A stretch of DNA of 64,000 bases from Marsupella aquatica (taxonomy: Eukaryota; Plantae; Marchantiophyta), in contig OZ316891.1 in assembly GCA_973895155.1 (NCBI GenBank), positions 1,665,324 through 1,729,323 on the forward strand, read 5' to 3'. A program made the translations under genes and the position numbers. Positions 24,541-58,899 of this stretch are shown here, one piece after another (the first letter of the stretch is position 1; every line of letters starts with the position of its first letter). The notes under the pieces were generated by a model. That model was not told the origin of the DNA. It ran no database searches and saw nothing but the letters and a program-made list of their open reading frames with translations.

Positions 24541-24697
24541 TGGGTATTATTGATACCAGCACAAAGTGTGAAATGATATTTCAGGATTCTTGATCCAGCT
24601 TTATTGTACTTGCATCATCCATACCCTCGGCAAGCAGCCAACACACTCCGTAAGCGCCTTTTCTTTGTCCTACAACTTGTTGTGGTTACTTGAGAAC

Positions 24698-26356: not shown

Positions 26357-26540
26357 GGATTTCATAGTTTCATCGTGAATGATAATGATAGATGTCATGA
26401 ACTATTGTCTATTTAATCATGTCATATGAATTAAATGTATTACTCATTTTGCTTCATTGTATTTTGTTATCAATTTTATCTTGAAGGGTGTATGGTGAAT
26501 GAATGCTAAAAATGTTTTTGTTATTGTAGAATCTGCAAGG

Positions 26541-28466
26541 ATGGGAAAATGGGATTTGGAATCCGACGAGGAGGAAAAACCTAAAAAGATTCCATATTTA
26601 TATTTGCAACCTGCTCAGGATTTACACCTTTGGTCTCAGGATCAATACGCTGAAGAAGATTCTCAACCCATAGACGAGGACATTGGAATGAGTAGCAATC
26701 ATGCAGGGCAAAGCATAACCAAAATGGATGAGGACACCAAGGATGTTGAATGGAATATCACAATGCCAAATGTGAAACCTCCTCACAATGAATGGCCCAT
26801 CAACGCCAAAGAATTGGAGATATTGATGCCACTTGTGGAGTTCCAAAAATGGATGAAAATCATTTTTGATGATGAAAATTTATGGGCCACAAGGTCTTGG
26901 ATGCAAGAGAAGTACACAATGTCCAAGGTAACACATGTGGAAATTGGCAAGCATTGGTAACAAAGATTTCAAGAGTATGCTCCAAAGAAAGCGCAAGGCA
27001 AAACAAGCTCGGTTTATCCTCCTTTTCTTCGACTCCTAATTGCTGAATTTGTTCTCAAGTGGAAGGTGGATTACCGTTGGGAAACAGAAGAGGGCAAGAT
27101 GACTCACTCTGTGCATCAGTCTGTCCTGGACATTGCAGGTTTGAAGAACAACAAAAATACTACAAAAGATATGTCGAGTCAAGCAACCAACAAAGGGTCA
27201 AAAAGAAAGATACATGATGTGCAAGACATTCATGCACATCAGAAAGATAAGCCGACTGCACTGGAACGACTCTTCACTAATTCTAAAAGTTTCAGCGCAC
27301 CAAAACATGTTGACAAAACATCAAACATTGCAGCATCTACAAGTAACAATTTACCAAGAAAGTTCACTGGTGTTTTGGATCCAAAGAAAGAATCATTGAA
27401 CATGGAGATTGTGTGCAAGAGTTTGGGCACAGAGATTGGTCATTTGATCGAGAACAATCTCCGCACAAAGTTTGGTCTTGACCTTTGTGAAGCTGGCAGC
27501 ATTGACTACTACAAGTCAAAGTTGCAAGATAATCTTTTGAAGATGAAAGCAATGGAAAAAATGCCCATTCAAAGTGCAACTACTTCGGAGGTGAAGGAAT
27601 ACAAGGTGCAACTGTACGACAAGATGGAGGAGATCGCAAAGCTCAACAAACAACTTGCCCAAAAGGATGGTCAATGTAGTCAAATGAAACAAGTTCAAGA
27701 GGCAGATAGAGTCATTCAGGATTTGAAGAATCAGGTTGCATCACAAGAGGTGATCATAAACAATCTGCAAGAGGAGATCGAGCAAATGAACACTGCTGAG
27801 GTGGATGGTCAGTCAGACAAGGAAAAATCAAGATGCAAGAACTACAATTATATGAACTTGCAAATGATTGATCCTACGGGAGAATCTCATCTTTTTCCGG
27901 ATGTGGAGGAGGATCCAGAAGATGTAGAGAAATTTTTTGACAAGTGGAAGACCGATGAAAGTATGGCCCAATTTGTTCGAGAAAAGGATGGAAGATGTAC
28001 TTGGTGCTTGTATCCATGGGGTCCTGAATCTGTTTCCATTTTGGGAACATGCGGTCACTTATGGCATCATGCTTGCTTATTTCGGTGGATGAAGAAGAGC
28101 CAAAAATATTGGTGTCGGAAACCATTTCATAAACGAGAGTATGAGCAACGAGGTTTGTTGAAACAAATGCCACCAATGGAGACACAGCAAGACACTGAAG
28201 ACATGACTCAAGAGAGTATTGCAATGGCACAGATCGATTCAAGGCCCATTGACAACTTCACAGTTAATGAATACAACTTGTCAGATGGTGACTTTGACAA
28301 TTTGTTATTCAGTGGTAGATTCCAACAGTGGAAGGAATATGCCATGGCCAATCGACCAACAACAGATGAGAAAAACATGCAGCGATCTATTCGTCGCCAT
28401 CGTCGTTGTCAGCAACTGGCAGAGGTGAAAGTAGAAGTGCAAGACAATGAGAACCGAAATGAGTAG
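26541..28466 (+). pseudogene. Coiled-coil plus RING-H2 protein (putative E3 ligase), one in-frame stop, hAT cargo
   Basis: ORFs 26499..26960 and 27066..28466 are in one frame separated by a single TAA (26958-26960); coiled-coil region; CTWC-x14-CGHLWHHAC-x9-YWC RING-H2 pattern with the seventh ligand Tyr (TAT, plausibly from TGT). Confidence 0.8.
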
Positions 28467-28578
28467 ATTGCACACTCAATGTTTAGTATAGCATATTTTA
28501 TTGCATAGGACATGCACAATCCGGCATAGTATATCATAGTTTGTCGTATAGTACTAGCATGTAATACCTAAACAGATG

Positions 28579-31437
28579 TCAAGGTTGTGACGAAAAGTGC
28601 CTTGTGTTATTGTTCTCATTTTCTTGCAACTGTCGATCAAATTGAAATTGTCTTGTTATCCATTGGACCGGATCTGCGCTATGATATTCTTGAAATGCCC
28701 CAACACGGGCATGTATGCTTGATGTGTATGGATTTGTCATGTTCTGCCTTTCATACATATTTTGTGCTGGAGAAGCATGTTGTCCCCACTGTGCATCATC
28801 AGGTTGCGCAAACAAAGTTGGTGTTGTTCTCTCAGGACAGAGCTCCGATGCAGCACCTCGTCGTTGAAATAGGTACAAAGTACTTGCTTGGACATCATTT
28901 TGTACATTCAATGTTGGGTATGTGAAGGATGGGGTTAGTTGGGAAGACACTACAAAGTTTGCATCAAATGAGTAGTCCTCGTCATCCTGAATTTGAGACT
29001 CATCGATTGTAGGGAACATCATTAAATCCATTTCATCTTCCCATTCTCCGACATCACTTATTTCAGTATCTGGTGGAATACGAGTCAACATGTGACTATC
29101 ATTGTGTAATGATAATCCTTGCAAAGCCTCATCTGCGTCATCAATTGTATCAAAATCCTCCACATCATCCTCTCCAAGAGCCGCACATGTAACACCATGT
29201 TGTTCAGTGTGACATCCTTCTATGGAAGTAGGCCTCGGGCCATCATTTGTTGCTGTTCTTTCTTCATATCATCTATACATAGACGTATGAGGGTTTCTCA
29301 CCTTCGTGAGCCCTTTTTGCACCCTCGAATTTGTGAATACAAAAACCAAATCTTTTGCCCGATCATTGGTCAACCTATTACGGCTTTTTGAATGGATAAA
29401 GCCGTATGAACTCCAATTTCGTTTGCATGAAGATGCACACATTTGTTGATGTGTGATTCTTCTCGCCATCAATCTTAGGTCCGCGTAATCAGCTCCATAC
29501 AAATGCCACCACTCTCCTGGACTTAATTTCCCAATATTCGATTGTGCTCCTCTAATTGCAACCGATGAATTTGGCAATTTTTTTTGAGCCTCGAATGCCT
29601 GCATTTGGATGTCAGAAATAAGTGTCGTCACATCTCGATCATGGTTGATTCCTGCCTTCATCTTGTGTTCTGCATATCTACGAACGTAATCATTGAAGCC
29701 TCTATACAGTTCTGCATCTCCTGCCACATCTTCATCTTCATCGAAGAAAAATTGAGGATTCAGATATGCTGCTGCTAACATGAAATCAGTAGTAAGTGAT
29801 TTTCGTCGATCCATATACACTTTCATTATCTTTGGTTTTAAGTAATCTGTTACTAATGTACAACCCTCCATGCTCGCCTCCAGTTTAGCTATTCTTTTTT
29901 TCAAGCTCCAATATAGCCAAGGAGACTGTGGTGAAACTCCATCGAATTCTCGCAACATCTTCACCAACGGCAGGAAAAAAGCAACTATAGATTTTACTTG
30001 AGCCCAAAATGTATCTTGCTGTATCCACGATTTAAGTTCGTCTGCCTTTCCCCTCGTCATATGCCCCTGTGACTTTGGTCGAACTGGCAGGCGATCACGA
30101 TAGGATTGCCACTTGTCATCAATGACCATTTATTGTAAAGCTCCTCTTAGCTCCAATGCTCTCTGCGCCATTAAAAAATTTGCTGCAAATCTCGTTGCAT
30201 TTGGATTTAACAACTTCCTGTCCCCAGATTTCCTCACAAATATTGCAGACAACTTTTATGATGATGTAACTGCTTTAACTATCCATCTCAAGTGCTTAAA
30301 AATCATTTTGAATGGATTTTTTTTCCGCTCATCTAGCACTACATTCTTGTGGCCACACATGTCTTCTAGCAACAAATTAAAAACGTGAGCAGCACACCAA
30401 CTCCATGTCACATGCGGATATTTTTTCATAACTATCTCTTCACCTGCTACACGATTTGCAGGCGCCCCATCAATAACAATTTGTATGATGTGATCGGCAC
30501 CAATATCATCTATGTATTTTAACCACATGTCACCAAGATACTTCCCATCTTTCTTGTCGGCTTGTGCAGCGTTCCAACTATCCAAAAAGAAATCTCCTTT
30601 TGAACTCAACAACATGACATTCATCAAAGGTTCCCTTCGGATATTTTCCCATCCATCGGATGAAAGGGAATATCCAAAAGGTTTTGCCTCCTTCATTGTT
30701 TTTGTCATGTCCTTTGTAAGATCAACTCTAGCCTCCTCCAATAATTTTATTCTCAAATTTCGCATACCCGGAAGAGAATATCCATTTACAATCCCTTTCG
30801 AGGTTTCTGTGACTACTTCACGGAAGAAAGGATTCTCCGACACATTGAATGGAATACCACTTGAATAAAAAGCTTTGGCCCACAGCTTATCCAAATGAGC
30901 TCTATTTGGAATTTGATAAGCATCCATGATTGGGTTTGAAAAATTTGATGCTCTACTTCGATGACTCATATTTCCATCCTCATCGAGGTCAACAAAATTT
31001 GAGTCTCGAGTTGATGCTTGCGAATTGGAAGATGGGTTATATGACCTACGACCTCTCATGGATAACAGAACATGACTTCCATCACTTCGTTTGTACTTTA
31101 TGGATGGGTCAACCTTTATGACATTGTACATTCTATTGATGTCATCTAAGTCAACAACTCCATACAAGCCTGTGCAAGGTGGCGCATCTCCTTTGTGTAT
31201 GTTTCCCATCAAATGTGCTTTTGCTCGTGTTGCATGATGCATTGTATATTTCTTGCAAAATTTGCATCTTTGATATATACGATTAATATCATTACACGCT
31301 GATGGCGTATCACATCGTTCAAAATATTTCCACACTGGGGAAAATTTTGCACTACAATCTTGATTGTGATTTCCACCGTGCCTAACAAGAGTAGAATGAG
31401 CTGATGAGTTGCCCGACTCATCTTCTTTGGAAGACAT
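28579..31437 (-). pseudogene. hAT transposase (BED finger, DUF659-type core, dimerisation domain, acidic tail), three in-frame stops
   Basis: PVWKYF...CKFC...H...HL BED finger; SSDGW; VIDGA; CAAH; NATRFA; ASSCKRNWS...HSKSRNRL. ORFs 30256..31464, 29269..30129 and 28579..29163 are all in one frame, broken by TAA, TAA and TGA; the usual catalytic E of CERNWS reads K. Confidence 0.93.
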
Positions 31438-31494
31438 GATCGAAAACAAGAACTTTACACACAAAGTATCTTCTTATACGTCGCTAAACATAGT

Positions 31495-31890
31495 CACTTA
31501 ATAAAAATTGAATGATTATTTGTTAGTCTTTTGAAGTAACAACAATAAAACGAGAAAAAAAAACTACTGTGAAATATCACATGTCGAGTCAAACTCCAAA
31601 CATGCGCACACGGTTCTCTTTTGTTTTCTGGTTGTTAACATTCCTATCCGACGTATGTGATATCTATAATTTAATGAGCATTTGCCGACATTGTGAAAAC
31701 ATATGAGACAATTAGTGATAATCATGTAAAATATCACATGTCAAGCTTTAGCTCCAAACATGCGTACATGAATGTCAACATTGTCAAAATTTGTTTCACA
31801 ATACCCACAAGTACCACTAAATGTTAAGGGATAAGAAAAAAGTTATTATGCGGATTACCACATGCCGAGTAAAACCTCCAAGCACGCGCG
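31495..31890. repeat. Right copy of internal diverged inverted repeat (partner 24110-24540)
   Basis: See partner; lies directly upstream of the transposase ATG. Confidence 0.75.
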
Positions 31891-32096
31891 CACAAAAGTC
31901 TTTTCTATCTCTTTACATAGAGTGCTCTACTTTTAGTGAAGTGTGTCTAATGAGAAAAACTCAAAGTTTTATACAATTTAGAATGGAAAAACATTCTATA
32001 TTTAGCGGGGTTGAAATACTAGATAGGCGAGAAATCGTCACAACCCCAAATTAGCAGATATGGCTTATCTCAATTGAGTTTATCCATAACTCTAAA

Positions 32097-32900
32097 ACCC
32101 GGGCTTATCTTCCCTTAACCCAGGCCGGGCCTCCCTCCTCCCTCCTCTCACCCCTCCCTTCACCCGGGCCGGGCCTCCCTCCTCCCCCCCACCCGGGCCT
32201 CCCTCCACCCTGGCCGGGCCTCCTTCCCCCCCCACCCGGGCCTGCTCCCCCCGGGCCTCCCTCCACCCGGGCCGGCCCTCCTCCCTTCCCCCACCCGGGC
32301 CTCGTCCTCCTCCCCACCCGGCCTCCTCCCCCCCCCTCCCCGGGCCCCCCTCCACCCGGGCCAGGCCTCCTCCCTCCCCCCACCCGGGCCTCCTCCTCCT
32401 CCACCCGGGCCTCGTCCTCCTCCTCCCCACCCGGGCCTCCTCCCCACCCGGGCCTCCTTCCCCCCGGGCCGGCCCTCCTCCCTCCCCCCACCCGGGCCTC
32501 GTCCTCCTCCCGACCCGGTCTCCTCCCCCCCCCACCCGGGCCCCCTCACCCCTCCACCCGGGCCGGGCCTCCTCCCTTCCCCCACCCGGGCCTCCTCACC
32601 CCCCCCCACCCGGGCCGGGCCTCCTCCCTTCCCCCACCCGGGCCTCCTCACCCCCCCACCCGGGCCCCCCTCCACCCGGGCTGGGCCTCCTCCCTCCCCC
32701 CACCCGGGCCTCCTCCCCCCCCCACCCGGGCCCCCCTCCACCCGGGCCGGGCCTCCTCCCTCCCCCCACCCGGGCCTCCTCCCCCCCCCACCCGGGCCGG
32801 GCCTCCTCCCTCCCCCCACCCGGGCCTCCTCCCCCCCCCACCCGGGCCGGGCCTCCTCCCTCCCCCCACCCAGGCCTTCCTCCACCCGGGCCGGGCCGGG
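32097..32900. repeat. Right GC-rich subterminal array of the hAT (ccacccgggcctcctccccc units)
   Basis: Dozens of cccgggcc-centred units; explains the spurious Gly/Arg/Pro-rich ORFs. Confidence 0.92.
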
Positions 32901-33980
32901 ATTTAAAGCCGGGGCGTAAAGCCGGGGCCGGGTGACGAGAGGTAGGGGGGGCCGGGCCGGGTCCGGGAAGAGGCCGGGAGGAGTTCAGGCCGGGCCGGGA
33001 GAAGTTCGAGTCGAGCCGGGGAATAAAGACAAATATGCGTCAAATGAGAGCATTTCAGGCCGGCAAATGCCGAGTTTACGTGCCGGGCAACTCGGCAAGT
33101 TGCCCGTCACATCAAACCGGGATTTAAAAAGATCTGTGTCCTTATATTGCGCTCACTTTATCGATATTGACGAAGACAGTATATCTTTCCCACGCCCAGT
33201 GCCAAGTTATTAGTAAAGTTACCGTCTGGGTCCCGTGTCCTCCTCTTCTGACGATTCGCGGTTGTCCAAGCATTGACTTGCTACAACTCATGGGAGACCT
33301 AGAATGTAATGAGACAAAAATGGAGGGTGCTCCTGGTTCCTTTAATTTCTGAGACACATCTCTGCGGTCAAATGATCCTTATCAACGCAGCGGCCTTTCA
33401 AGACTGTTTGGGCACAACATGTGCGATCTGGCACCTCTATAAGGGCTTCTGAATCCTCAGGCTTTGGTAATTTAAATTTCCGGACTGTTTGCTATAACAG
33501 GCTGGTAGTGTACTACTGTACTGATGAGGAAAGGACAAAATACAATGCAATAAAAGGAAAGAAAAGAAAAAGAAGTCCTGACATGACGAACTACCATGGG
33601 GCAAGCCTCTGCTAGAGATCTATGATGGACCTTTCAGGTTTGAGCACCCTTTAGCATTACCAAAATCCATTAACTGAAGTGCATAGTGAAAACAAATGGT
33701 GATGATCTTGAGGAAATAGCCTATCCCCAAACATCGGAGCTGCCATCCACGGAGCCATCAACTTAAAGACGGAGTCTCCCAAGGTCAATAGTATGGGGAG
33801 AAAGCTATTTTATGAGATGTGTTACATATTTCTCCTCTCTTCCCATTGTGATGTTACTATGCCCCTGATGCCCTGACACAAATGGTTAGCTACCAAACAT
33901 CAGTCTACATACACGTGTCATCTCATACCTTTGTAACATCATTACATAGTCTTGATAGCAGATGACAAGGCCAATTTAGC

Positions 33981-40282: not shown

Positions 40283-43200
40283 CTAATGGTCTACATCAAG
40301 TGTCAAAACAAAATCGTCAAGTGGGACTGGAATGTCCTCTAGGGGGGCTAGCCGATGCGGAGTCACACTAGCACCCATTGTCAGAGATCGACAATAGATG
40401 GCCCGAGCTTGAGCACACTGTAAGGTGACTGAAATGCGTTGGCAAAAGTGCATGATCAAAACAGATAGCTGGGGTCCGGTAGGACCCATCCGGCCATGAA
40501 CATCCCGAGCAGCTTGCCAAAGAAGCCCGTCAAACTGATGATGGAGACGCCCAAATATCTCAAGAGCAAGGGGGAGGAAGCTATCAGATGAAGCTTGTGC
40601 AACATATTTGGCCTCCTTCGTTATTGCTGCTCGTGATGCTGCTGCCCCTGCCGTTGTTGCCGCTGTCCCAATGATGTCTTGGCGCAATGGGTTTGCCACC
40701 ACTACATCTGCCAAAGTACGTTGACGCTCACAAATCATGGTAGGATCCACCCGTAACCACTGTGATGGAGGACTGGGTAACTCAAGCACCACCTCCCACT
40801 GCGCACAGACCAAAGAGCCAGAGAGAACTTGAGCAGTCGCATCTCTCACAACATCGTGAACAAAAATGGTTTCACCTCCCAAACTTTACCGAAGAAGATG
40901 GACACCTGTGGCATCACAAGGCTTCCCACAAGTGCAAGAAGGAGGTAAACCAGCAAGAAGTGGGTGGGGTAAGCCCATACAAAGACGCATGGCTATCGCA
41001 AACTCTGCTGAAGATATCCGCAGGTGAGGAATGATTGGATTGGCCTAAAGCCATCCTCCTGCTCCCTTCCCTCCAGAAGAAAGAATCCGAGCTTGGCCCA
41101 TGTCAGGTGCCTTGGTGAGGATGTTGGAGAGGGTGAAAGCGTGTTGTCCGAGGTCTACTTGAAGACGGACGGGGTCCAAGGATAAAAACTCCTGAAATGA
41201 AGGTAATGCAACTAAGACAGGATCTGGTAATGATGACCGCGCCGCGCGCAAATGAACCTGAAATGGGATGGAACCCTCCTCTACCTCCATGAGAGACGAA
41301 AGTAAAAAAGGTCAATCCTCAGTAAGGAAACGATCTGCCAACAATGAGAAGGCGGCCACCCACGCGCCCAAAAGGCCAAAGGTGCAAGGCGCTCAGTGGA
41401 AGTAAGCCCAAAACCACCCTGAGAAATATGAAGACTGAGCTGTCGACGAAGCCATGAAGATGAGAGCAAAGTACCTAGCCCTAAAAGCGAGGCCACAGTC
41501 TCACGAATGGAGACATCAAACGCTCGGAGGTGTAGATAAAGATCCTTGGTAGGGGGATGTGCTTGAGCCAAATAGGACGCGAGGGGGTGGACGCATCTCA
41601 ACAACAACCCAAATGTTGCCTGAGAATCTGCTAACTTAGGGAGCATAGGAGTAGGGGCTAAGGCAGCCTGTAGAGCGTCAGCAATGAAAGATGAGCAAAA
41701 TGAGACAATCCCGACTGGAGAGCCAAGGACCCAAAGACCGTCGATTGGACGTAAGAAACAAGGGGGAAGCGCAAGATCAGAGGGTAACCCAGCTGGACTC
41801 TATGCACGACTCTTCATAGGCTGAACCCGTAAACCAAGGCCCAACAAATGGGTGAAAAGGGTGGTGAGGGCAAAAGTAACCACAACGGGTGGACCAATGA
41901 TATCGGTGTCATCTGAAAGGAAGGGGAAGATACACAGGGGGTGGGCCGCGGAGGCTTCCCGTAAAGCTGTAAAATGGGCAATGGCAAAAAGAGGCCCACC
42001 CAAAGGGTCACCCTGACGTGTACCTTCTGTAGAGAAAGAGTGGTATACACTCCTATAGAGGTGTGATGACTATAGAAGAGGGGGGCCTTGAGTCCATAAA
42101 AACAACGGACAAAGGGGATAAGGGACTGGATGTCTAGATCCGCCGCCCTCAAACCACAAAAAATTGCTGCCCAAGAAACCGTATTGAAAGCATTAGAGAC
42201 ATCAACCTGGAGGACAACGCAATCAATTAGGTGGAGGTCCAAGGTAGCACGAATACCCACAATAATTGTCTCACAACCGCCAAGAACGCCCACTTCAAAT
42301 TGATGTGGAGAGAGATGATCCGATAGTGCAGAGCAATACTGCGATGAAAGTGTGCAAGACACAAGCCGAAGAAAAACCTCTCCTATAGCTATGGGCCAAA
42401 TACCCGGTGAAGACTTAGCCATGGCCAATAAACGAGAGGCAAACAGCCGGCTGCAATATACTGGCAAAAGGAGAAGAAAACTGGAAAACTAGACTGAGGA
42501 TCCTCGGGGAGGATTAAATCATAAAAATGCTCAAAGACATAGCCAGAGGGACCACCAGCCGTGCAACGCGGGGCATGGAGGAAAGCATAGGTGAAGTGGT
42601 CCCTACTAAACTGAAGATCCTCCTCAGGCTTAAAATCCTCCACGAACAAAGGGAGCTGATCATAGGGTTGCGGATGAAGATCCTGAACGGCCGTCAAGGT
42701 GACCTCGCCAGGGGGGCTGGTTGTTAAGGATTGCTCTTAGTCTTGTGACTCAAAGGTTATGACTCAAGGTTAGTCGTGTATGACCTTGCATATACCACGG
42801 CTAGTGTAAGCCGCTGGTATGTGGTGTTTGCTCATTGTAATAGAGCAACTTGAGGAAGAGAGAGAGCTTGTGTGTTCGACTACTCTGAAGTAAAGTTGGA
42901 GTGTTTGTGTGGACGTAGCCTTGGAGAAGAGGTGAACCACATATGGATTGTGTCGGCTACATGTGCATGGTATGAGTTATGATTGTATCATGATGAAGGA
43001 AGATGTTATACTTCAACACTGGTGTGGTGGGAGAAAGGGCCTGGACAGCACAATGATATTCACCAGCCTGGGGTAAATGACAAGAGCGATGAAGGCATCT
43101 ATGCTCTGGAGGATGAGAGTGGCGAGCTGGGTTAGACAAAGCACGGGCGGTAAAGGAACAGGCTTGAAGAAAGTACTCTTCCTGAAGCTGTTCCCAATCT

Positions 43201-46226: not shown

Positions 46227-46811
46227 TAACCATGTTACAGGTTTTTACTAAACTATCTCCCAAACTGATGGTTGTTACTTTTTTATTTAAATTTTTGTTT
46301 ACTACGTTGTTACTAACACCCCCCATCCAACTAAATTATTTATTAAATTACCCCCCAAATAATATTGTGTTACTTTAAACCCAAATACTTGACCACACTG
46401 CATTCCCATTGGCTGTCAAGCAACCAGAGTTCATGACCTAAGGTGAAGCTAACCCGCATCCACTTTCACACAGTCCATAGCCTTGTTGGGGCCTGAGGTG
46501 CAGTGCAACTTCAGGGCCCCACTTGGACCTAAGTACGACCGGGGCCCAAGTCGCAGCCCTTGTTTTCTTTGGAAAACAGCACCAGAATTTTGGCTTTTTT
46601 TTTTAGGTGTAAGAGTTCTGGCCCGAACATCGAATGTGAAGGGCCGGCAATGGAAGAGAGGGATCGGGGCAACTCTGGTTGCTTGACAGCCAAAGTAGTT
46701 GAGTTAGAAGCCACAGGATACACTCCTTTTTTTGTGTGGGGGGGGGGGCAGGTTTGTAATAAGGATCAGTTTGGGGGGGGGGGTAGTTTAGTAAAGAGCT
46801 GAACTAGGTTA
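46227..46811. mobile_element. Degenerate MITE-like element with about 50-bp TIRs and internal hairpins
   Basis: taaccatgttacaggtttttactaaactatctcccaaactgat is inverted at atcagtttggggggggggtagtttagtaaagagctgaactaggtta; GC hairpins near 46488-46551. Confidence 0.55.
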
Positions 46812-47264
46812 TGCCAATTGACTTGAAGTACATTTGTTAAACTTTCATTGCTCCTGTTTTGCTCTATCTACTGTATTTCCTGTCCTACTCATTTGTGCCT
46901 CTAGTCAATACTGTTTTTGTTTGGCTTGGAAATCACTGCCCTGATTATTGTACAATTATACACTTCTGCACGACGTGTAGTTGTAGCGTGCGAGCAGCAA
47001 GTAAAAACTTCATGATACAGGGCCTCGCAACCTCATAGGAGGAAAAAACCCTAAACATAAACCATTTCACTAGCAAACTTAATTCCTAGCTACCCAGAAC
47101 CTTATTTTGAACTATCTTGAGTTTTGTGTCATTTTTTTGTACAGCCCAATTAGCGGGCCAATTAGGGACAACTTTTTGGCTGGCCAAATCAATAGCCAGA
47201 GGAAAGTGAATCCCGGATGGATTGCCATGTTGGACAAAGTTGCTCCCGTGGATCACATTTTGGC

Positions 47265-47439
47265 TGTCGTGATATATAGTATTGAAGCCATAGTGTATCG
47301 AAAACATACAGTCACCGGCAAGGCATATGTGCAAGCTGCTAGCAACCAACATGCATAGAAAAAGTCCAATCACATTCACAAGTGCCAAAAAAAAGCAAAT
47401 GAAGTGGTATGTACGTAGTGGAGGTGTAAACCTCTGTAT
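47265..47439 (-). repeat. Terminal repeat a2 (175 bp)
   Basis: Matches 47801-47975 with about 4 substitutions by eye. Confidence 0.95.
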
Positions 47440-47798
47440 AATAAAAGGCATAAGAGAAACAAGCGTACTGAAATCGAATCAAAAACCGGCGGGATGCCAA
47501 GATTGGCCGGAGGCATCTAACGAATCACTGTGTGAATCTCGTGTACGGAACCGACGAGCACTGTCTGAGCTCTGTCAACAGCGATTCAAGAAGAACTAAA
47601 AACCAACAAAGAAAGACATGCCCTAAGCAAGCAAAGTCCTGGCGTCACACTAACAAGCACATTTGCTTCAAGAACGGCCTAGACTTGCTACAAGAACATG
47701 TCGCTAACTCAGGTAGTACACTAGCCCTAACTACATACCTAGCGGGCATGAGAGGGACATGCCGATGTGCATAAGAGGCACTGTCCCTCGGCATGACA
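47440..47798 (-). repeat. Repeat b2 (359 bp)
   Basis: Matches 56863-57221 with about 14 substitutions by eye, mostly transitions. Confidence 0.95.
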
Positions 47799-47800
47799 AC

Positions 47801-47975
47801 TGTCGTGACATATAGTATCGAAGCCATAGTGTATCAAAAACATACAGTCACCGGCAAGGCATATGTGCAAGCTGCTAGCAACCAACATGCATAGAAAAAG
47901 TCCAATCACATTCACAAGTGCCAAGAAAAAGCAAATGAAGTGGTATGTACGTAGTGGAGGTGTAAACCTCTGTAT
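47801..47975 (-). repeat. Internal repeat a1 (175 bp), preceded on the element strand by a G7 tract
   Basis: Copy of 47265-47439; ccccccc at 47976-47982 is a PPT-like run on the minus strand. Confidence 0.95.
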
Positions 47976-48014
47976 CCCCCCCAGACCACAGCCAAAAGGA
48001 GGGCTGAAGAAAAT

Positions 48015-49614
48015 TCAGGTAGCACGTGGAGCACAGGAAGGGCAAAACCATAACCCTTCTGGCACCTGGGTAAGTTCAGGCCGAAGGCAGAAAAGATGGT
48101 ACCCTCCATTGCAATTGTCACACAGCAGCATCTGGTCAGCATCATCAATTTGCAAACACACCTTGCAAGGGTAGTCCATAGGTGGAATCCAAGTAGAAGT
48201 CACAATGGTGGGATCTAGGTTAGGCAGATGACAAGGGGCGCAATTCTTGGCATTGTCAGCAATTGTGCGCCCATCTGCCCCTTGTAACTCTAGCACTCCA
48301 GACGATCGAATAGCTTTAACCCTGAGAATAGTACGATTGGTAGAGGTGTCCAGGGTGTCGTTAGCTTGCCGCTGCAAGTACACAAAATCTCCCACATCAA
48401 ACTTCCTGACCTTGGGCTGAAAAGTGCCCCCTTGTGTGTGTGCATAACGCAGTGTGTCCCTGTGTTGTGCAATGGCCAAATTCTCCATGGCCACGGGCAT
48501 AACCCTCCTGAATAGGGCAGCCCTCTCAGAGATCACATCAGACCAAGTCACAGCTGAATCCAAGTCCACCACCTGAAGTATGTGAGAAGCAATAGCAGAA
48601 GGTGGAACTGGGTGACGACCAAACAACAAGAAGTAGGGAGAAAAGTTAGACAATGATGCATGTCTAGACATCCTATACCCCATGGCAATGTAGGGTAAGG
48701 CCAGGTCCCAATCCTCCTTGTTTTTGTTGAGGCAAATCTTCCGGAGACCCTTCTTGCATGTCTGAACCATGCGCTCTGCCAAGCCATCTGCCTGTGGGTG
48801 ATCTTGTGATGTCCGGCGATGATCAATGAGGGCCTGATCAAGCAGCTCCTAGAACTCTCCATTAAACTCTGAGCCCTGGTCAGTGAGACATTCTGCACAA
48901 GCTCCAAAGCGGCTGAACTTGTTGCAGGAATGCCTGGCTGGTGCTACGGGAGGTCTTATCCGGCAATGCCACAAGTTCTATCCACTTGGAGAAATGCTCT
49001 ATCATGATCATGATGTAGAGATTACCCCAAGACGTGAGGGGTAATTCTCCAGCCAAATCACATGACCAGCGATAAAACATGCCCTGAATAGGGAGTGGAT
49101 GAAGCGGGGGATGAAGTGTGGGTTGTCGAGATGTGAAGGAAGTCCTCCCCCTATCACACTGTTCACACCGGGCAATAACATCTCGAACCTGGCCATGCAT
49201 GCCTCTCCAATGATAATGAGGGACCAAGAGGTTGTAAGTCCTCTTAACACCAAAATGACCAAGCTCAGAATGTACCTTACGGATAAGGCCAACCCTCTCA
49301 TGAATAGGTGGAACCACCACTTCCCTGTCTGGCAAGCAGCGCACGAGATGATCTCCCTTCCACAAGTAGCGCTTGGACCTTTGCTGAATTCGGTCTCTCT
49401 GGGCAGCAGTAACATGTGTGGGGTACTCCCCATACTGTAGAAATCTCAGAGTGTCGCTGTCCTCCCATATGTCCACCACAGGTTGGTCAATAATATAGCA
49501 TGGCAGCAAAGCAAGATAGGTCGATGCATGAAATGTAGGCAGGATAGAAACCTGGTCAAAATCTTGTCGTGCATTTGAGGAATCATCAGAGGTAATCAAA
49601 GGGCTGTGGGACAT
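48015..49614 (-). pseudogene. Gypsy DDE integrase (frameshifted near 48900)
   Basis: HSELGH...CEQC zinc finger; WSCDLAG; IEHFSKW; LTDQGSEF; HPQADGLAER; SPYFLLFGR. Confidence 0.92.
48033..48167 (-). CDS. PHD finger at the C-terminus of integrase
   Basis: CKVCLQIDDADQMLLCDNCNGGYHLFCLRPELTQVPEGLWFCPSC is a complete C4HC3 PHD in ORF 48015..48782. Confidence 0.95.
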
Positions 49615-49686
49615 AGTGTCAGCATTCTAATGTGTCACACCAGGCCTATGAATTACCTCAAAATCATACTCCTGGAGTATGAGCGC

Positions 49687-51000
49687 TCAACGAGGAAGCT
49701 TGCCAGTAAGCTTGTTGTTGGTCATCAACCACTTCAAGGGCTGGTGGTCGGTGTAGAGAACAAACCTGGTCCCATAGAGGTAGGGCCTGTAATGTATGAC
49801 AGCCCACACAACAGCAAGGCATTCACCCTCATAAGAAGAACAATGACTCTCTGCCTGATTGTTGCTCCTGGATGCATAGGCAATGACGTACTCTTTACCT
49901 TCCTCATCATGCTGGCCCAGAATGGCACCAATCCCAAGGGCACTCCAATCTGTGTGTAGCACAAAGACCTTGTTGAAATCAGGTCTTCTCAGCACCGGGT
50001 ATTCTGAGAGCTTCTCCTTCAAAGTGGCAAATGCTGCCTCAGCATCTGTACTCCATGTCCAAGTCACATTCTTTTTCAACAAAGCATACAATGGGTGTGC
50101 AATGGTACTGAAATCTTTGATGTAGATCCGGTAGTAATTGCACAACCCAATAAAACTCCTCAAAGTGTGAACATCGGTAGGAGTGGGCATTTCCAAGATG
50201 GATACCACCTTGGCCCAGTGAGCCATGGTTCCATTTGGAAGAATGCGATGCCCAAGATATACTACTGATCTGACAGCAAATTCACACTTCTTGGGGTGTA
50301 TCTTTAGGTTCACCTTCTTAAGCCTCATGAATAGCTCCTCAAGGTCAAGTAGATGCTGGTCAAATCCTTTGCTGTGGACCAACACATCATCAATGTAGCA
50401 TTTCAGAAACTCAGCACCTTGAAGAACCTGGTCCATGACTCTTTGAAAGAATATGGGCGCATTCTTCAAGCCAAATGGCATCACCAACCACTCCCATAGT
50501 TGGTTACTACCATGGAAAGCTGTTTTCTTGCGGTCCTTTGCAAGCAGCAAAATCTGGTTAAAGCCTTGCCTTAGATCCACAAGAGTGAAGATGTCTGAGT
50601 CTCCAATGCTGTCAAATAGCTCCTCTGGCCGTGGCATGGGGTACCTGTCCTGGGGTGTGACCAGGTTTAGTGGCCTGTAGTCCCCACACATGCGCTTCTC
50701 TGTCCACAATCTACTGGAATCCTTCTTTGCTGGCATCACTGTAGCTGCTGCAAAATCTGATGTAGATGGCTGAACAAGACCAGCTTCATAGAGCTCTTGG
50801 CATCTCTCATCCACCAGCTGCCACTCATGCTTACTCAAACGGTGTCTCCGCCTGAAGATAGGTGTTTCATCAGCCAACTCAATGGAGAACTGCATAGTCT
50901 TGCACTTACCCAAGTCCTTCATAGAGAAAGCAAACACATTCTCATGCTTGAGGAGCAAATTCAGCAGCTGGTCCTTCTGTCTTTTACTCAGGTGGTTGCC
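49687..51000 (-). pseudogene. Reverse transcriptase and RNase H
   Basis: KRMCGDYRPLN, DLRQGFNQI, KKTAF, MPFGLKNAP, YIDD, LRSFIGLCNYYR; RNase H HTDWS, YEGECLAVV, YTDHQPL; in-frame TGA at 49687. Confidence 0.95.
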
Positions 51001-51359
51001 CATGATGAATGTGTAGTTGGCAACACTAGGAATAGGACCTGATGTACTCGTGCTTGAAGAGCCAGAAGTGCCAGCCTCTCCACTGTCCAAGCTGCTAGCA
51101 TGCTGCTGATAAGGTGATGAGGCCTCTCCAAGGCCTGTTGTATCTGTTGCTCTGGTCTGATCCACACCATGAAACTCAGAAATAATGTCAGCCACATTAC
51201 AAGGGACCTCCTCCCCCCCCCCAACACTTGGACTGAAGTGGTGAGTGTTGGACAGAGGTAAGTGCACCTGGTTTGGATGCCATGTAGCAGCACCATGGAG
51301 TGGTAGGGCTGGAACTCCTGATGCTGGATGAATGTACATCTGAAAAAGGATGCAAGTGA

Positions 51360-52300
51360 CCAGAAGCCAAGTGAGAGCATTAAGATCCATTACCCTGCCA
51401 AGTAAAGCATTTCTGGCTAGCCTGGTGATTTTGGTGTGACATGTAGTACCGGGTTGGAAGCCCATAGCCCGTTCTCTCTCCTCAGGACTAGGTTCATCCC
51501 ATGTACCGGTAGAATGTCGATAAACCAGGCCAGGACCATCACCCTGAAAAGCATGTGCACCTGGAAAGGACACAAATGTAGGCCAAGCAGCACGGGGCTG
51601 TCCAATGGTATTAGCTGGATACCAAGGTGCTGGCTCTTGCCGTGTAACTGGTTGGCAAGAACTGTCAGGATCCAAAATCTGGTCCACTGTGAGGTTAGTG
51701 TCCCTGGATGTGTGCTGAAGAGCTAACTCCAACAAGGAAGGTGGTGCAAGGTTAGTCCAAAAGTTACGAAGACGATGTGCATAAGAACCACAGTGCACTG
51801 CATCAATGAGAAGGGGTGGTCCCAAGTAGTGCTGGACCACATTGAAATCCTCTTTGACCTATGGACGCTGGTCAAACTGAGATGGAGTATTCTCAATGAT
51901 ATAACCAACAGCAGGATAAAGGGATTGAGCCCAGGTGAGAATCTGAACCAATGCTGTGAAAAGGCCAGAATGAGAATCATGCAGTCCAACACCGTGACCA
52001 GTAGCTGAAAACCCTTGGCATTCCCAACCAGCTATGATCAAATCAAGGGAGCCAAGAAGGGTTAAGTGCCGGTGTTGGACAAGCTGGATATCTGGAGGGA
52101 AGAAAGAAAATGCAAACTTCCATGCACTGTGTGGAAACTGCTGGGGAAATCGCTCTGAAAATTCCAGCAGACGGGATTTAGCCACTTGCCTTGCACCTGG
52201 ATCAATGTCCACGTAGATGTACTGCTTCACCACCATGCCAGACTGTAGGAGAGCTTCCAGGCCTGTAGAAATGCCACCAAAAAGCTCAAGCAATGTAAGG
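51360..52300 (-). pseudogene. DNMT3-like C5 cytosine methyltransferase domain within pol (one in-frame TAG at 51859-51861)
   Basis: Motif I LLELFGGISTG, II YVDID, IV DLIIAGWECQGFS, SGLF, VI IIEN, VIII IDAVHCGSYAHRLRNFWTNL, IX ERERAMGF, X LLGRVM; same order and wording as DNMT3 catalytic domains; in frame with RT. Confidence 0.9.
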
Positions 52301-52544
52301 CCATCTGAAGGAGGAGTCCATGTAACTGGTGCGCTCAAGATTGGGGCTATTGGCTGTCCATTGTGCTGCCCAAGGTCTTCAAACTTGCGCAATGCAGCCA
52401 CCAAAGGTCCATGGGCTGCTTGGAGCCGTTGTACCACCTCTGGTTGATGATCCACGTTGCTGGAAAGTGCTGCTATACGTGCAGTAGCCACCTCATCATC
52501 ATCCTCCTCAATCCAATCCTGCAATGGGTGGTTGACATAGGCAG

Positions 52545-53417
52545 CTATGTGCACTGCTTGCAACACACAATGGTGAGCCATAGGTGTATGGGCACCATGC
52601 AAATCAAGTGGAATGTAGCCCAAGTGTGAGCCATCCGTATGCCAATCAACTCTGTAGTATGCATGCTCATGCCAGTTGTCAATGGTAAAACCTGGTGGGA
52701 ACAAAGCCTCCTGGCCAATGAGCACATCATACGTAGTGGCATTGGTAACCAAACATCTGACTGGGAATGCAATCCCTGATCTGTACCTCCATTAAAAGTG
52801 AGAGTAAGTAAAGTAGAACTCTCACCCAACACATCCTCCACAGTGCCACTAGCAGTCCGAATGTGCCACCTGGATTGCTGTAAATGATCAGTCAGCAGTC
52901 CCATCTTCTTGGCAAACTAAATGCCCAATATCATTGGTTGAGCGCCTGTGTCCAGCATGACCACTTGAGGAGTGTGACCCTCCAACTTGACCGCTGAATT
53001 CCTATTGTCAACAATGGCAATGGTGGTGGAAACTGAAGTCCTATCGCTAGGCACCACTTTTGGCAAATGATGAGGTACCTTGTGAAGGGAGTTAGTGTCC
53101 ACGGTCTTTCCACTCAACAGCATAGTCAGGAAAGATGGAGCAGCATGACCAGAATCCAGTGTAGCTCTAGTCACACAATCTGCAGCAATACTGTCATCTC
53201 TACCACTGGAAATTGGTGCTGGGATAGCCAAACCAGTGGAAGCATGTAATGGAGAAGAAGAAGGTCCAGTATGTACATGAGATTGGACCTCCAAAACTGG
53301 TGTCACAGGGGCTGATGAAGAATGCAGTGAGCCCTCTAGCGCTCTGATGATAGCTCTAGCATCCAGCTGTAAATCATGGCAACTGAAAAGTGGAGTGGTA
53401 AGAATCCTTTGTGCCAT
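52545..53417 (-). pseudogene. Aspartic protease region of pol (stop and frameshift)
   Basis: VMLDTGAQ active site; IRTASG flap; YDVLIG closing motif in the next frame. Confidence 0.85.
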
Positions 53418-54937
53418 ACCGGAGGTGAAATGCTCAAGCAGCTAAGGAGAAACAACTCCCTATGAAATGTCAGTAGCACCTGGTGGTGGAATGGATGTAG
53501 CTGCAGCTCTCTCCCCCCTCGCCAACAAGGTGCGCTCTTCAGCAAGGGTAAGGGTAGAGGGGCTGAACTGTCAGTGGTGCCGATGGGTTGCACGTGACCA
53601 GCCGGTTGAGAAGGACTAGCAGAGGCAGGTGACTTGCCTTTGATGTGGGCAAGTTGGGCACGTAGGGACTCAACCTCATGAGTCAAAGACTGGAGTTGAG
53701 TTGCCTGTTCGTTGTGAGCCTCCTTCTGAGCTGGTTGCTTCTGTTGCTGCTTGGGCGATTTGTTGGCACCAAGTGCTTTGCCATTGGAAGGAGGAGCAAC
53801 TGAGGCAATAGGAGCCCTCCTAGCTGGTGGGGGAGTGGAAGCAGGAGCAGGATGAGGGGCCTGCTGGCGTAGCTGCTTCCTCTCTGGGAATTTTGCAAAA
53901 CAAACTGCCTCCAAGTGACCCACTTTCCCGCAAAAATCACAAGACAGATCCTCAGCAACAATATCACATTTATTAGCCTTGTGATTGGGGTTACCACAGT
54001 AGTTGCAAGATGGCAGCATGAAAGCAACATGGGCTGGCTTGGTCTTGGAAGCATACTGTGGCACACGGGAAGGAGTGGCCAGTGTAGGGGCAGCAGCCTG
54101 GTACCTAGATTGCGGTGGACATGCAATACTGGCCTCATAATGTGCATGGGCCAACTCAAGTTTCTTAGCAGTGTCATAGACATTGAGCAGGGTGTAGCTG
54201 TCTCCAAACTCTGAGAATACTTGCTGCAACACTTGCAAATGGAGAGCTGGTGTGCCCTCCAATGCGCAAAGATAGCGATGAGCAGCTTCCAGGTCAGTGA
54301 TGCTTTGGGTGTCCTCCTTCAGCTTGAGAAGTCGGCGATACATCATCTTCAATGTTTCATCGCGCTGCCTCACAAAGGTGGCCAATTGCATGATTTTGTC
54401 AGCACTCTTGATTGGGAATTCCAATTCAACAACCTGGAAAAACTCAGCGACTGGATCAGCAAAGGCAGGAGAATCAATAGTGGGAGAAATGCCTGATGTA
54501 GCCTGTGCCAAGACAGTGGGAGTAACTGGCGCAGTGGTAGGAACTGGAGTAGGAGGGGAAGTGGCAGGAGCAGCAGCATGGGCTGTAATGGCATTCTGTA
54601 AGGCCAATTGTGAGGCTGCCACAATTGCACTGGCATAGGTAGGGTTAGGCAACTGTGTGACAGCAAGCAGCCGTTGAGAGTGCTGCTCATACACATCCAA
54701 AGCCTCATAGTGCACATACCTGGCTAGTTGCTTGAATGCAAAAGCATTGGTGAAATTGCTGCCGTACTTCAACTCCAATTTGTAAATGACAGTGTAGAAA
54801 GTGGATTTGAACTCACGCAAAGAAATAGTGCCTGGCCGCCCGCTGAAGCGCTCAATGCGGCCAGATGAGTGGCTAGCATCCATGCTGTATGTCGGTGAAG
54901 CTGGAACAACCACTAATGCAGAAGGGGTAAATGGCAA
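53336..54937 (-). CDS. Gag with two CCHC zinc knuckles
   Basis: RIERFSG N-terminal motif; CNYCGNPNHKANKC and CDFCGKVGHLEAVC; the C-terminus probably shifts frame at the G-run near 53515. Confidence 0.9.
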   Translation of the reverse strand: MPFTPSALVVVPASPTYSMDASHSSGRIERFSGRPGTISLREFKSTFYTVIYKLELKYGSNFTNAFAFKQLARYVHYEALDVYEQHSQRLLAVTQLPNPTYASAIVAASQLALQNAITAHAAAPATSPPTPVPTTAPVTPTVLAQATSGISPTIDSPAFADPVAEFFQVVELEFPIKSADKIMQLATFVRQRDETLKMMYRRLLKLKEDTQSITDLEAAHRYLCALEGTPALHLQVLQQVFSEFGDSYTLLNVYDTAKKLELAHAHYEASIACPPQSRYQAAAPTLATPSRVPQYASKTKPAHVAFMLPSCNYCGNPNHKANKCDIVAEDLSCDFCGKVGHLEAVCFAKFPERKQLRQQAPHPAPASTPPPARRAPIASVAPPSNGKALGANKSPKQQQKQPAQKEAHNEQATQLQSLTHEVESLRAQLAHIKGKSPASASPSQPAGHVQPIGTTDSSAPLPLPLLKSAPCWRGGRELQLHPFHHQVLLTFHRELFLLSCLSISPPVWHKGFLPLHFSVAMIYSWMLELSSER

Positions 54938-56862
54938 GGAAGTGATAGCAGGCTTCGGGGTAGTGGTGAAGCGACCGCCAAATTGAGCAGAAGGATTGCA
55001 TGGTGTGGGTGCTGTTGCTGTCTGCGGACGTTGTCAAAATTGCTGAGACTCCAATGAAATTGGCACCAACGGTCGTGGATCACTCCGTAAGTGGTACCGG
55101 GGTGTCGGTGGCGATGAGCTGCTACGACTCGGCTCCTCTGCTGACATGCTGCATGCTCACCTGGGGTGCCAATGGAAAAGAAACTGACAAGAAAAATAAA
55201 TGGCAGCCTCAAGGCTAGAAAATTAACCTACAATGAAGCAACGGCGTGAGGCAAAAATGCCGTGGCCTCGATGTGCATACCCGAGCGTGTAGCCCTATGC
55301 GGATTACCCGGCGGTTACCAAATGTCCGGGACCAAATGTCAGCGACTGTGAAGAAATATAATGAAATGGACCCCCTTAAGTGTATACATCGGGGCCCCCT
55401 GTAATTATGCATTGGGCCCGATGTGGACCCGGGAACTGACGGAAGGCGCACATCGACGGAAAAGAAAAATCAGGTGGGGACCGGCAACCGAGCGAGTGTG
55501 CATACACACTCGGGCACGGTGCCCTATGCAGTCGAAGGGAGGTTCTCGCGCGGCGTTTGAGGCAAGTCGACGCCTTGCCGGCTACAACCCACGGATTGCA
55601 GGTCGCGGCAGCTGGGCTGGAAAATGGAAAAATGGGTCTGCAAAATGCGAACGGGGCCCAATGTATATACACATCGGCCCTATGTGGACCTGAGAAATGA
55701 CAGCAGGTCGATCGTCGCGCGGCGAAAAAGTGAGAATGGCCGAAAAAGGGGAAAACGGGACCCAAGGCGAGGCGAGGAAAAAAAACAGAAGAAGCAGAAG
55801 TGGGCCTTAATTGCGCAAGCCCTGCATAGGGCTTCGCGCCGCCCCCTCCTTAAGTCCTTACGAGCTCCCGAAGGGAAGCTACGAGTTCCCCCTTCCCCTC
55901 CTTAATGATTCCTGGTGGGCCTCGTGCCCTGCAGAAGTGTGACTCCCAAGAGGAGGGAGTCTAATTGAATTCCCCCTCCCCTCTTTAATTCAGCATAGGG
56001 CCTCGTGCCCACTCCTTGCGCTGCTGCCTCGGGTCTGTCTCCCCCCTCCTTTAATGCTGCTAAATGTGCTTCGTGCCCTGCAGGACTCCTGAGAAGGGAG
56101 TCGTATGTATTCCCCCTCTCCCCCTCTTTTAATTCCTCATAGGGCTTCGTGCCCTCCTTTCGCTTCCCCCTCTCCTGCGTGGCTGGTGCGCGGCTCCCCA
56201 CTCCCTCCTCTTTAATGCTGAAATGGGGCCTGGCAGCATGACTCCAGAGAGAGAGAGAGAGAGTCGTATGTACTCCCCCCTCCTTACTGCTTCAGAGGCG
56301 CGAAGCTGGCTCGGCAGCCGTGGCCGGGAGAGACAAAAAAAAACGTTTGAGGGGCCCCGAAGGGTCGATGCGAGCGGGGGCTCAGCTCCCTATGTACAGA
56401 CTGCGAAGAGCCGGGGGTGGTAGCAAAAAATGGGCACACGGCCCTATACACTGACAGTCGGGAGGTGGCAGGGAGGGACCACGGCCGGAAACTGCAATAA
56501 TCGGGCCCCAATCGTTGCGCTACGGCCGGGGCAAGTTCACCAGCAGTGTGTGGCCGGGAAAATACCGAAAATGGCCCGAAAAGGTCAAACGTGCACGAGG
56601 GCGCAGTGCCCTATGCAGCAGCCGGAAGCAAGTTTGCAACAGCAGGTCGGCAATCGACGGAGGGGTCGTGGATACACCCGGGAAGGAAAAACTGGGTTCC
56701 AATAGAAGCGTTATGTGTATACATAACGTGACATTAAACCCATAATTTCAACCAGTCCCTGCTCAAAGAAATGGCATCGACTTCGATGGGAATTGTCTGA
56801 ACCAACACGAGCAGCTAAGAAGCACGTCTCCGATTTCCTTCCCCTTACCACAATTCTTCTTG

Positions 56863-57221
56863 AATAAAAGGCGTAAGAGAAACAAGCGTACTGAAATTGA
56901 ATCGAAAACTGGCAGGATGCCAAGATTGGCCGGGAGCATCTAACGAATCACTGTGTGAATCCCGTGTACAGAACCGACGAGCACTATCTGAGCTCTGTCA
57001 ACAGCGATTCAAGAAGAACTAAAAACCAACAAAGAAAGACATGCCCTAAGCAAGCAAAGTCCTGGCGTCACACTAACAAGCACATTTTCTTCAAGAACGA
57101 CCCAGACTTGCTACAAGAACATGTCGCTAACTCAGGTAGTACACTAGCCCTAACTACATACCTAGCGGGCATGAGAGGGACATGCCGATGTGCATAAGAG
57201 GCAATGTCCCTCGGCATGACA
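56863..57221 (-). repeat. Terminal repeat b1 (359 bp), 5' end of the element
   Basis: Copy of 47440-47798; no a-type sequence on either side. Confidence 0.95.
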
Positions 57222-58899
57222 TGGCGGCCCATGGGAGTTTTAAGCTTATAAGTTGTTAATTGTGAGTGTGAAGATCATTTTTAGTTGCCCCTGCAAGACA
57301 ACTAGAGAAGCAGGAGACTTGAAAAAACACAACCTCAAACACAAGCTTGCCTAATATTCCATATTAACACTGAGAATGAAAAAATCTAATAGATTTTAAT
57401 TACCCCTTGGCATACCATGATGAATAACTCAAATAATAATGGCTAAAACTTCAGTGTCACTTTGATGGAAGTGTGGCTTCCCTACTCCTCTAGCACATAC
57501 TCAAAACTAAAAAATATTTGAATTTATGAACATTAAGTTATCCGGGGTAAGTTATTACAATTAAACTCAAATTCTTGGAAATGCGGTCTATGGGGGTTTT
57601 CAAAGACCAACGTTTTGGTCCATGGGAGCATCATTTTCATATTCAGATGGAGCCTAAAAGATGCAATAGAAATATCAAATTTAGCAAAAATCATAAGACA
57701 TTAAGAACCACTCTTGTGATTCTTTAACAATGAATACTCTCCTTGCTAGCAAAAATTCCTACCTATTTGCATCATACAATACCTCCTGCACACCCCAATT
57801 GTTCTCTGAATCAAAGTTTCATCCCTCTCCAGTTGTTGAGGTTGTCCCTCCAGTGTCTACAATTGTGCCTTACATTTGCCCCCATTATACATCTTGGGGG
57901 TAGATATGAAGTTCCAAGTTTTGCTACTAGTGACTTCAGGCTTCATGGCAGAATTATGGCAAGCTCGACCCCAAGCACAAGGCCATGCCTGGACAAGTAT
58001 CACTGCACTTTCAGTGACCCTTAATGTATTCTAAAGTTTTCTGGCATCTGAGACTAGCTAGCTCTAGATGTCCTCCCATCTTGGAGAATAAGACCTTTCA
58101 CTTCAGGAACAATAATAGCAAAGGTGGAAACTGGATTCAGGACAAGTTGGTTACAGGTGGCTGACCAGGATCCACTCCTTGTCCTAAGAGCATCTCCACC
58201 GGGTCCAGCAAATAGCCCTGTAACCTCCATTTAGGCATATGGCGATTCCACATATGCGGGCAGGATGTCCCACTGGCACCCTGCAACCCCTAAACTGATG
58301 GCAGCCCACCGAAAAGTTGCAGACCCTGACCGCCAGATTCATATGCGTTGGCGGTCAGAGAATGTGCCCCCATTTTGACTCCCAGAAGGATCGATGATTG
58401 AATGTGTACACTGGGGTGCAATCTGGCTCAAGCTTGAGTTCCCGCTTGGAGAGTTTCCCGCACTCGACAAATTTTTTTGTGCAAATTTTGCGGGGTGCAG
58501 GTGGGGGTCAGCGAGGAGGGTCTCGGGCCAGCATCCTTCAGACCTGAACAAATATGAGGCAAATTTTTGGGATAGGGGCCACGAGTGCCCGAACGGGTGG
58601 AGATGCTCTAAGATGGTAATTGGTGATCCTCGTACAAGGCTGGTGGGTGGTTTCCGGACCTGCCCTTTGGTTGTCGTGTGCTTGGGCAATATCTCTGTCA
58701 AAAAGAAAGGAAGAAAATATATAGTTCTTATGGACCTAAGTTTGCTCATGTATCACTGCATGCATGCATTGTATGTCTTTAAATAACTAACTGCCTGCAA
58801 ATCTAAATATACACACTTATGTGGAGAAGTTGCTTGTAAGGGCGTGCATAGTAGGCAAGAGAGTCAAGCTGATGGATTATTGATTACTCTATTGATTGT

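Follow-up and report, generated by a model that had tools for sequence, protein, structure and literature searches.

A stretch of 64,000 nucleotides from the liverwort Marsupella aquatica (GenBank assembly GCA_973895155.1, contig OZ316891.1, positions 1,665,324 to 1,729,323 of the forward strand; hereafter the window) carries on its minus strand, at 47265..57221, a dead copy of a multi-copy Gypsy-type retrotransposon with a cytosine methyltransferase domain. The element has no pair of complete long terminal repeats (LTRs); two repeat parts, a and b, stand in the order b1 - gag/pol - G7 - a1 - GT - b2 - a2 between TG...CA ends and a TGGC target site duplication (TSD) of 4 bp, not 5, an arrangement that an initial annotation had described from the sequence alone and that is confirmed here on the minus strand. 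This split-repeat layout is a trait of the family. We consider it likely that the LTR of the complementary DNA (cDNA) reads a-GC-b and that integrase cuts at a site inside it; the fuller proposal, to which we give about an even chance, is that end joining closes this cDNA into a circle, which integrase then cuts at CA^GC^TG within the upstream LTR.

The two copies of b differ at 14 of 359 positions and those of a at 4 of 175, both gaplessly, and 16 of these 18 differences are transitions; no further copy of either part occurs in the window outside the element. The TG...CA ends and the TSD, within the 4-6 bp range, are those of canonical LTR retrotransposons, but the insertion is not bounded by a complete LTR on each side in either the window element or the related loci described below, and the purine tract, which in canonical elements adjoins the TG start of the 3' LTR, here meets a, which begins ATACA. 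Stop codons and frameshifts in gag/protease, the methyltransferase, the link between RNase H and integrase, and integrase itself show that the copy is dead. The observed/expected CpG ratio over pol is 0.17-0.31 (three 2-kb bins, 48001 to 54000), compared with 0.12-0.84 across the window, a depletion that fits past methylation.

Contigs assembled from sequencing reads were compared for 4 of the 13 runs that match part of the element. At the left insertion junction, contigs from runs of two studies extend 49 letters into the element, and at the right junction 30, one below the 31-letter rule; none of those listed spans the whole element, so that the internal order at this locus is unphased. Contigs from three of the four runs show a G8 run adjoining a in the window's own family. 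The initial annotation had placed a and b in exact abutment, without gap or overlap, at 47439/47440; the coordinates hold, whereas the joint probably contains one extra base. The last base of b probably doubles as the first base of the priming site, which would make b 358 bp long and leave one surplus base at the b2|a2 joint of the window, and in contigs from all four runs this joint is one base shorter. Read depth in run X1 is about 1e5 over the element compared with 136 in the left flank, which hints at high copy number without giving a count.

A scan of metagenome contigs returned 598 matches, 474 of them confirmed relatives, and the best 80 loci were used for a census. These loci belong to a related family (66-79% amino acid identity) that differs from the window element in the sequences of a and b and of these parts shares only the terminal motifs; the window's a, b and leader found no BLASTN match among the 80 loci, nor did an exact 20-base pattern from its a match any metagenome contig. 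No relatives were found in viral contigs, and genome contigs supplied none with a bryophyte alignment and one useful contig among three with an algal-type alignment. The integrase end is present in 33 loci, of which 30 could be used (L028, L076 and L077 were dropped because they leave no room downstream). In 29 of the 30, a comes immediately after a G run; b does so in none, and the remaining one is interrupted. By distinct site, 14 of 24 read a-b-a, two read a-b followed by a remnant or other sequence, seven have a only and one is interrupted. At the other end, b is visible upstream in 28 of 44 gag-bearing loci (22 sites), the 16 dropped comprising eight with less than 1 kb upstream, three with an inverted 5' part, four without detectable b, and L074 at a contig edge. 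Part a neither precedes nor follows the 5' b at any of the 22 sites, and a full 5' LTR was never seen. A normal LTR arrangement was thus found at 0/30 3' ends and in 0/21 complete 5' b copies. After removal of L046, L066 and L068, nine sites have both ends intact, and of these six have an exact 4-bp TSD, one a TSD with 3/4 bases matching and two none. A tabulation of repeat order and TSDs such as the initial annotation had proposed turned up, in this related family, many independent insertions of the form b...a-b-a, and the annotation's view that the unit inserts in the split form is upheld, the agent being likely the DDE integrase, with TSD formation.

Several census loci depart from the long form. 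The short form b-internal-a, found at 7/24 sites, was considered as proof of insertion from a 1-LTR circle and rejected as ambiguous, because L019 (long) and L057 (short) have both flanks in common and thus represent both forms at one site; recombination or assembly collapse could yield the short form. L025:17632-18111 is a lone b-a unit, bounded by TG...CA and flanked by a CAAT duplication, and would pass as an ordinary solo LTR. In L010, L023 and L066, b and the leader are oriented opposite to the coding region (about 4268-4804 in L023 and L066). L081:1-10362 is a eukaryote-like Gypsy-methyltransferase element within the record of a bacterial metagenome-assembled genome, probably a binning contaminant.

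In LTR elements the purine tract marks the start of the copied repeat, and in the census its joint with a is exact in 29/29 cases. At the other boundary, directly after b, inspection revealed no tRNA-type site; the next 12 bases are complementary to a 12-mer inside b, a putative self-priming arrangement. Among 21 related sites (L036 was dropped from this test), pairing extends to 12/12 bases at nine, 11 at seven, 10 at two, 9 at two and 7 at one, and in 19/21 the partner 12-mer lies 32 bases past a TATA motif; random internal 25-mers used as a control reached the score of the 16 sites with 11-12 paired bases in 2/300 and 1/300 cases. Locus L004 folds into the predicted priming duplex (z -3.49), and the window element retains the pairing with two compensatory changes relative to the related family. 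Since the purine tract immediately precedes a and the putative self-priming site immediately follows b, we infer that the copied repeat, and hence the cDNA LTR, is a-GC-b, with cDNA ends other than TG...CA. Rare variants not attributable to deamination occur in both copies of one element in 8/13 cases for a and 14/17 for b, compared with 1/27 and 1/15 by chance; since such variants are common to both copies along a and b, both repeat pairs appear to be renewed from one template, as LTRs are.

The spacer between a and b is two bases long at 21/21 related loci (GC in 12, AC in 5 and GT in 4, one common site having both GC and GT), and these variants fit decay of a palindrome, CAGCTG, by deamination. 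A junction of this kind appears to be old: a distant, GC-rich 10-kb contig, whose reverse transcriptase is 40% identical, reads CACGACA-GC-TG about 115 bases past its G7, its b part lying off the contig. The b|a joint is ragged. Among 17 sites it is exact in eight, shorter by two bases in three and by one base in one, longer by one base in two, replaced by large deletions anchored at the joint in two and followed by unrelated sequence in one; in L072, a truncated integrase gene runs directly into the first base of a. Raggedness of this sort is the pattern expected from end-joining of free cDNA ends.

These features suggest the following route. Transcription would start inside b1 and end inside b2. 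Minus-strand synthesis would be primed, as in Tf1, by the first 12 bases of the RNA, paired to the site that follows b1, and plus-strand synthesis by the G tract, beginning with the first base of a. By the established reverse-transcription pathway, the product would then be a-GC-b, internal region, a-GC-b, with ends that are not TG...CA. Host end-joining would link its right end (b) to its left end (a), likely forming a circle, and integrase would cut CAGCTG in the upstream LTR in a staggered fashion, behind the CA of each strand, leaving two recessed CA ends with two-base overhangs. Recessed CA ends with such overhangs are the usual substrate of integrase. Their insertion would give b-internal-a-GC-b-a flanked by a 4-bp duplication.

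Several observations weigh against this route. The circle would contain two identical cut sites, yet the mirror product, with b-a-GC-b at the 5' end, occurs at 0/22 sites; perhaps the upstream LTR is the first to become double-stranded and captures integrase, or, alternatively, the element's own methyltransferase may mark one of the two sites. TSDs are missing at 2/9 sites. For the window copy, the priming duplex is predicted (p 0.91-0.94) only for RNA cut no more than 5 bases beyond the site; longer folds lose it (p 0.02 or less), and in 2/6 related copies it is lost or weak when 200 bases are added. The b of the window copy yielded no TATA box. The transcript ends, the cDNA and the circle are all deduced here from sequence. 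We also caution that the census was drawn from metagenome contigs, which may carry assembly bias, and describes a related family rather than the window element's own.

An alternative that retains the internal cut and the a-GC-b LTR dispenses with the circle: the upstream junction of a linear cDNA would be cut, both processed ends inserted, and the break between b and a sealed after insertion by host repair. This would account for the ragged joint, for the anchored deletions (L014, L031 and L072) and for L034, where unrelated sequence follows b2; it requires no choice between two sites on a circle, and failed repair would suit the missing TSDs. However, a chromosome break would have to be resealed at every insertion although 14/17 joints lie within two bases of exact, and the sites without TSDs may be chimeric contigs, so that we regard this route as possible but rather unlikely. 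Replication by templated strand transfer, as in PAT and Ngaro, is in our view less probable still. Here the RNA would extend into a2, b|a would be copied from the RNA, strand jumps would rebuild b1 and a2, and DDE integration would follow. The A1-B1-A2-B2 layout is that of PAT and Ngaro as described in the accessible text of PMC4157794, a single orientation is predicted, matching the 0/22 mirror forms, and 8/17 joints are exact. Yet the joint variants -2 and +1 recur across subfamilies, exact and -2 joints occur within one subfamily, and the spacer and the purine-tract joint are invariant. The copied repeat is moreover delimited as a-GC-b by the purine tract bordering a on one side and the self-priming site bordering b on the other. 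These features, with the ragged b|a joint, likewise disfavour the initial annotation's suggestion of reverse transcription guided by split repeats with a transcript end in a2.

The simplest explanation, a single rearrangement, autointegration product or misassembly of an ordinary element with b+a LTRs, would be in keeping with the fact that no listed contig or long read crosses this copy as a whole. It is largely refuted and we give it almost no weight: the normal arrangement is missing from every scored 3' end and complete 5' b copy of the related family, contigs of the window's own family have the G run next to a, and a similar layout is stated for the alga Klebsormidium (legend in PMC5890265). 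Sibling copies with two full LTRs or signs of misassembly, which the initial annotation had named as refuting outcomes, were not seen (0/30 3' ends and 0/22 5' sites with a full LTR). The end-joined circle cut inside its upstream LTR stays our preferred route.

Compared with known systems, the element has the proteins of Gypsy but an inserted structure without the two complete LTRs of that group, and it does not belong with PAT or Ngaro. The nearest described case is KnitGypsy-Dnmt3 of Klebsormidium nitens, for which the legend to Fig. 4c of de Mendoza et al. 2018 (PMC5890265) states a DIRS repeat structure combined with Gypsy domains, so that the initial annotation's suggestion of an undescribed layout does not stand. 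The likeness extends to Gypsy domains, a DNMT domain inside pol and, according to that legend, DIRS-like repeat order; the accessible text of PMC5890265 makes no mention of a TSD, priming site, junction or mechanism, and the two elements are likened by description only. No named K. nitens sequence is among the methyltransferase homologues listed. A 2026 preprint, in its accessible part, mentions streptophyte Gypsy-DNMT3 elements and not their repeats. By its complementarity, the predicted priming site after b in the window and related elements matches the self-priming arrangement described for Tf1 in the consulted section of PMC7175516, but Tf1/Sushi and plant Tcn1 Gypsy elements, as portrayed there and in parts of PMC6317226, insert with a complete LTR on each side, the outer termini of which are also those of the cDNA, and no chromodomain was found in the window element, which has a PHD finger and a DNMT domain instead.

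PAT, TOC and Ngaro elements usually lack integrase-type TSDs. They have the same A1-ORFs-B1-A2-B2 split direct repeats (accessible text of PMC4157794), and both they and the window element may carry their own recombination junction internally; the window element differs in having no tyrosine recombinase and in possessing a DDE integrase, a protease, a purine tract, TG...CA ends and a 4-bp TSD. In foamy virus and HIV-1, integrase cleaves the palindromic junction of 2-LTR circles, giving processed ends (PMC1180852 and PMC4372172, from the portions available), a likeness to the cut proposed here; their cut site is the ligated joint itself and the route is auxiliary according to the same portions, whereas in the window element the cut site would sit inside the LTR and the ligated joint would stay within the insertion. 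Chlamydomonas Gypsy-7a_cRei was also considered for its LTR subparts and set aside, as the legend in PMC9940879 gives it two nearly full LTRs. No published account of priming, junction or integration was found for elements of this kind, in a search whose coverage did not extend to subscription papers, Repbase entries or theses.

Table 1 Features of the split-repeat Gypsy element and its flanks, in window coordinates.
Feature	Position	Strand	Basis
TSD TGGC, left copy	47261..47264	+	sequence
a2, 175 bp, with CA at the element 3' end; presumed source, 5' LTR of the cDNA	47265..47439	-	repeat comparison and inference
b2, 359 bp; joint with a2 at 47440/47439, the putative end-joined cDNA junction; 47440 probably one extra base	47440..47798	-	repeat comparison, contigs
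Two-base spacer GT in CA-GT-TG, putative integrase cut site	47799..47800	-	sequence, related loci
a1, 175 bp, ATACA start right after the purine tract	47801..47975	-	repeat comparison
G7 polypurine tract	47976..47982	-	sequence, contigs
PHD finger, integrase C-terminus	48033..48167	-	PF00628, E 5e-12
Integrase: H2C2 zinc finger and DDE core (SCDL, TDQG, AERM), frameshift near 48917	48213..49500	-	Pfam, motifs
Reverse transcriptase and RNase H, stop codon after	49690..51030	-	Pfam; closest named PDB chain Ty3 Gag-Pol
C5 cytosine methyltransferase domain, in-frame stop 51859-51861	51340..52308	-	PF00145 above cutoff
Aspartic protease region, DTG motif, frameshifted	52600..53040	-	motif; Pfam matches only in homologues P0001 and P0128
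gag-like frame, Cys/His knuckles, conserved in related loci	53340..55033	-	without Pfam match
Long leader, GC-rich degenerate subrepeats at 55895-56283; little shared with sibling copies	55034..56851	-	
Predicted self-priming primer-binding site, directly after b1	56852..56863	-	complementarity
b1, 359 bp, with TG at the element 5' end	56863..57221	-	
12-base complement of the priming site inside b1; predicted transcript 5' end	57009..57020	-	complementarity
TSD TGGC, right copy	57222..57225	+	sequence

The encoded proteins (Table 1) follow the order protease - reverse transcriptase - RNase H - integrase, as in Ty3/Gypsy. Among solved structures the reverse transcriptase is closest to Ty3: its top PDB matches have E values of 3e-63 and 7e-63, the named one being Ty3-G Gag-Pol, compared with 1e-23 for retroviral reverse transcriptases. 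The match of the DDE core to rve falls under the curated cutoff because of the integrase frameshift, and the H2C2 finger is also present. The initial annotation's reading of a DDE integrase without a tyrosine recombinase agrees with these results, none of the latter being detected by Pfam in the 13 element frames scanned (6 + 7); the seven further frames had no Pfam match. The methyltransferase has named homologues in Calypogeia fissa, Sphagnum and the green alga Hariotina. In the window's group this domain precedes the reverse transcriptase, whereas in a second group, at about 40% identity, it follows RNase H. The usual reading at the methyltransferase catalytic motif is PC; in both groups (window 51340-52308; P0003, P0005, P0007 and P0134-P0147) the motif reads GWECQ.

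Other parts of the window hold further mobile-element sequence. Just left of the insertion, at 46238-46801, lie nested inverted repeats resembling a miniature inverted-repeat transposable element, with a perfect 23-bp pair at 46409-46431 / 46671-46693. Long imperfect inverted repeats (71% over 381 bp) at 24134-31889 surround a protein kinase frame (24572-26356) and a RING-finger frame (26961-28466), with a hAT transposase (29269-31473) inside them on the opposite strand to these two frames; the whole is possibly one hAT element with cargo genes. Fragments of non-LTR-type reverse transcriptase are present at 40283-42488 and 20292-21389, with a weak RVT_1 match (E 0.0014) at 41817-42488, and a GC-rich low-complexity repeat at 32055-32984 gives proline/glycine-rich frames.

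In the textbook LTR cycle, integrase acts on the very ends that reverse transcription has produced, and 2-LTR circles count as dead ends or as a minor reserve. The layout reported here was already known from one legend remark; what would be new is the route, specifically its integration step rather than reverse transcription. The cDNA ends and the ends that integrase uses seem to be uncoupled in this successful, multi-copy family, which would make these elements a natural system for testing cleavage of an internal palindromic junction by integrase, and dependence on host end-joining. Searches that require two full LTRs, such as the survey outlined in the accessible text of PMC6317226, likely miss or mis-trim such elements in bryophyte and algal genomes. 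The route also suggests that split direct repeats can derive from an ordinary LTR by circular permutation. At even odds, in our estimate, relocation of the integrase attachment sites to mid-LTR, in the shape of a ready-made CA-GC-TG junction, is common to a whole clade of methyltransferase-bearing Gypsy elements that spans algae, mosses and liverworts; end joining of the cDNA and cutting at this internal junction would then be the obligatory way in which the clade integrates, and not a salvage path.

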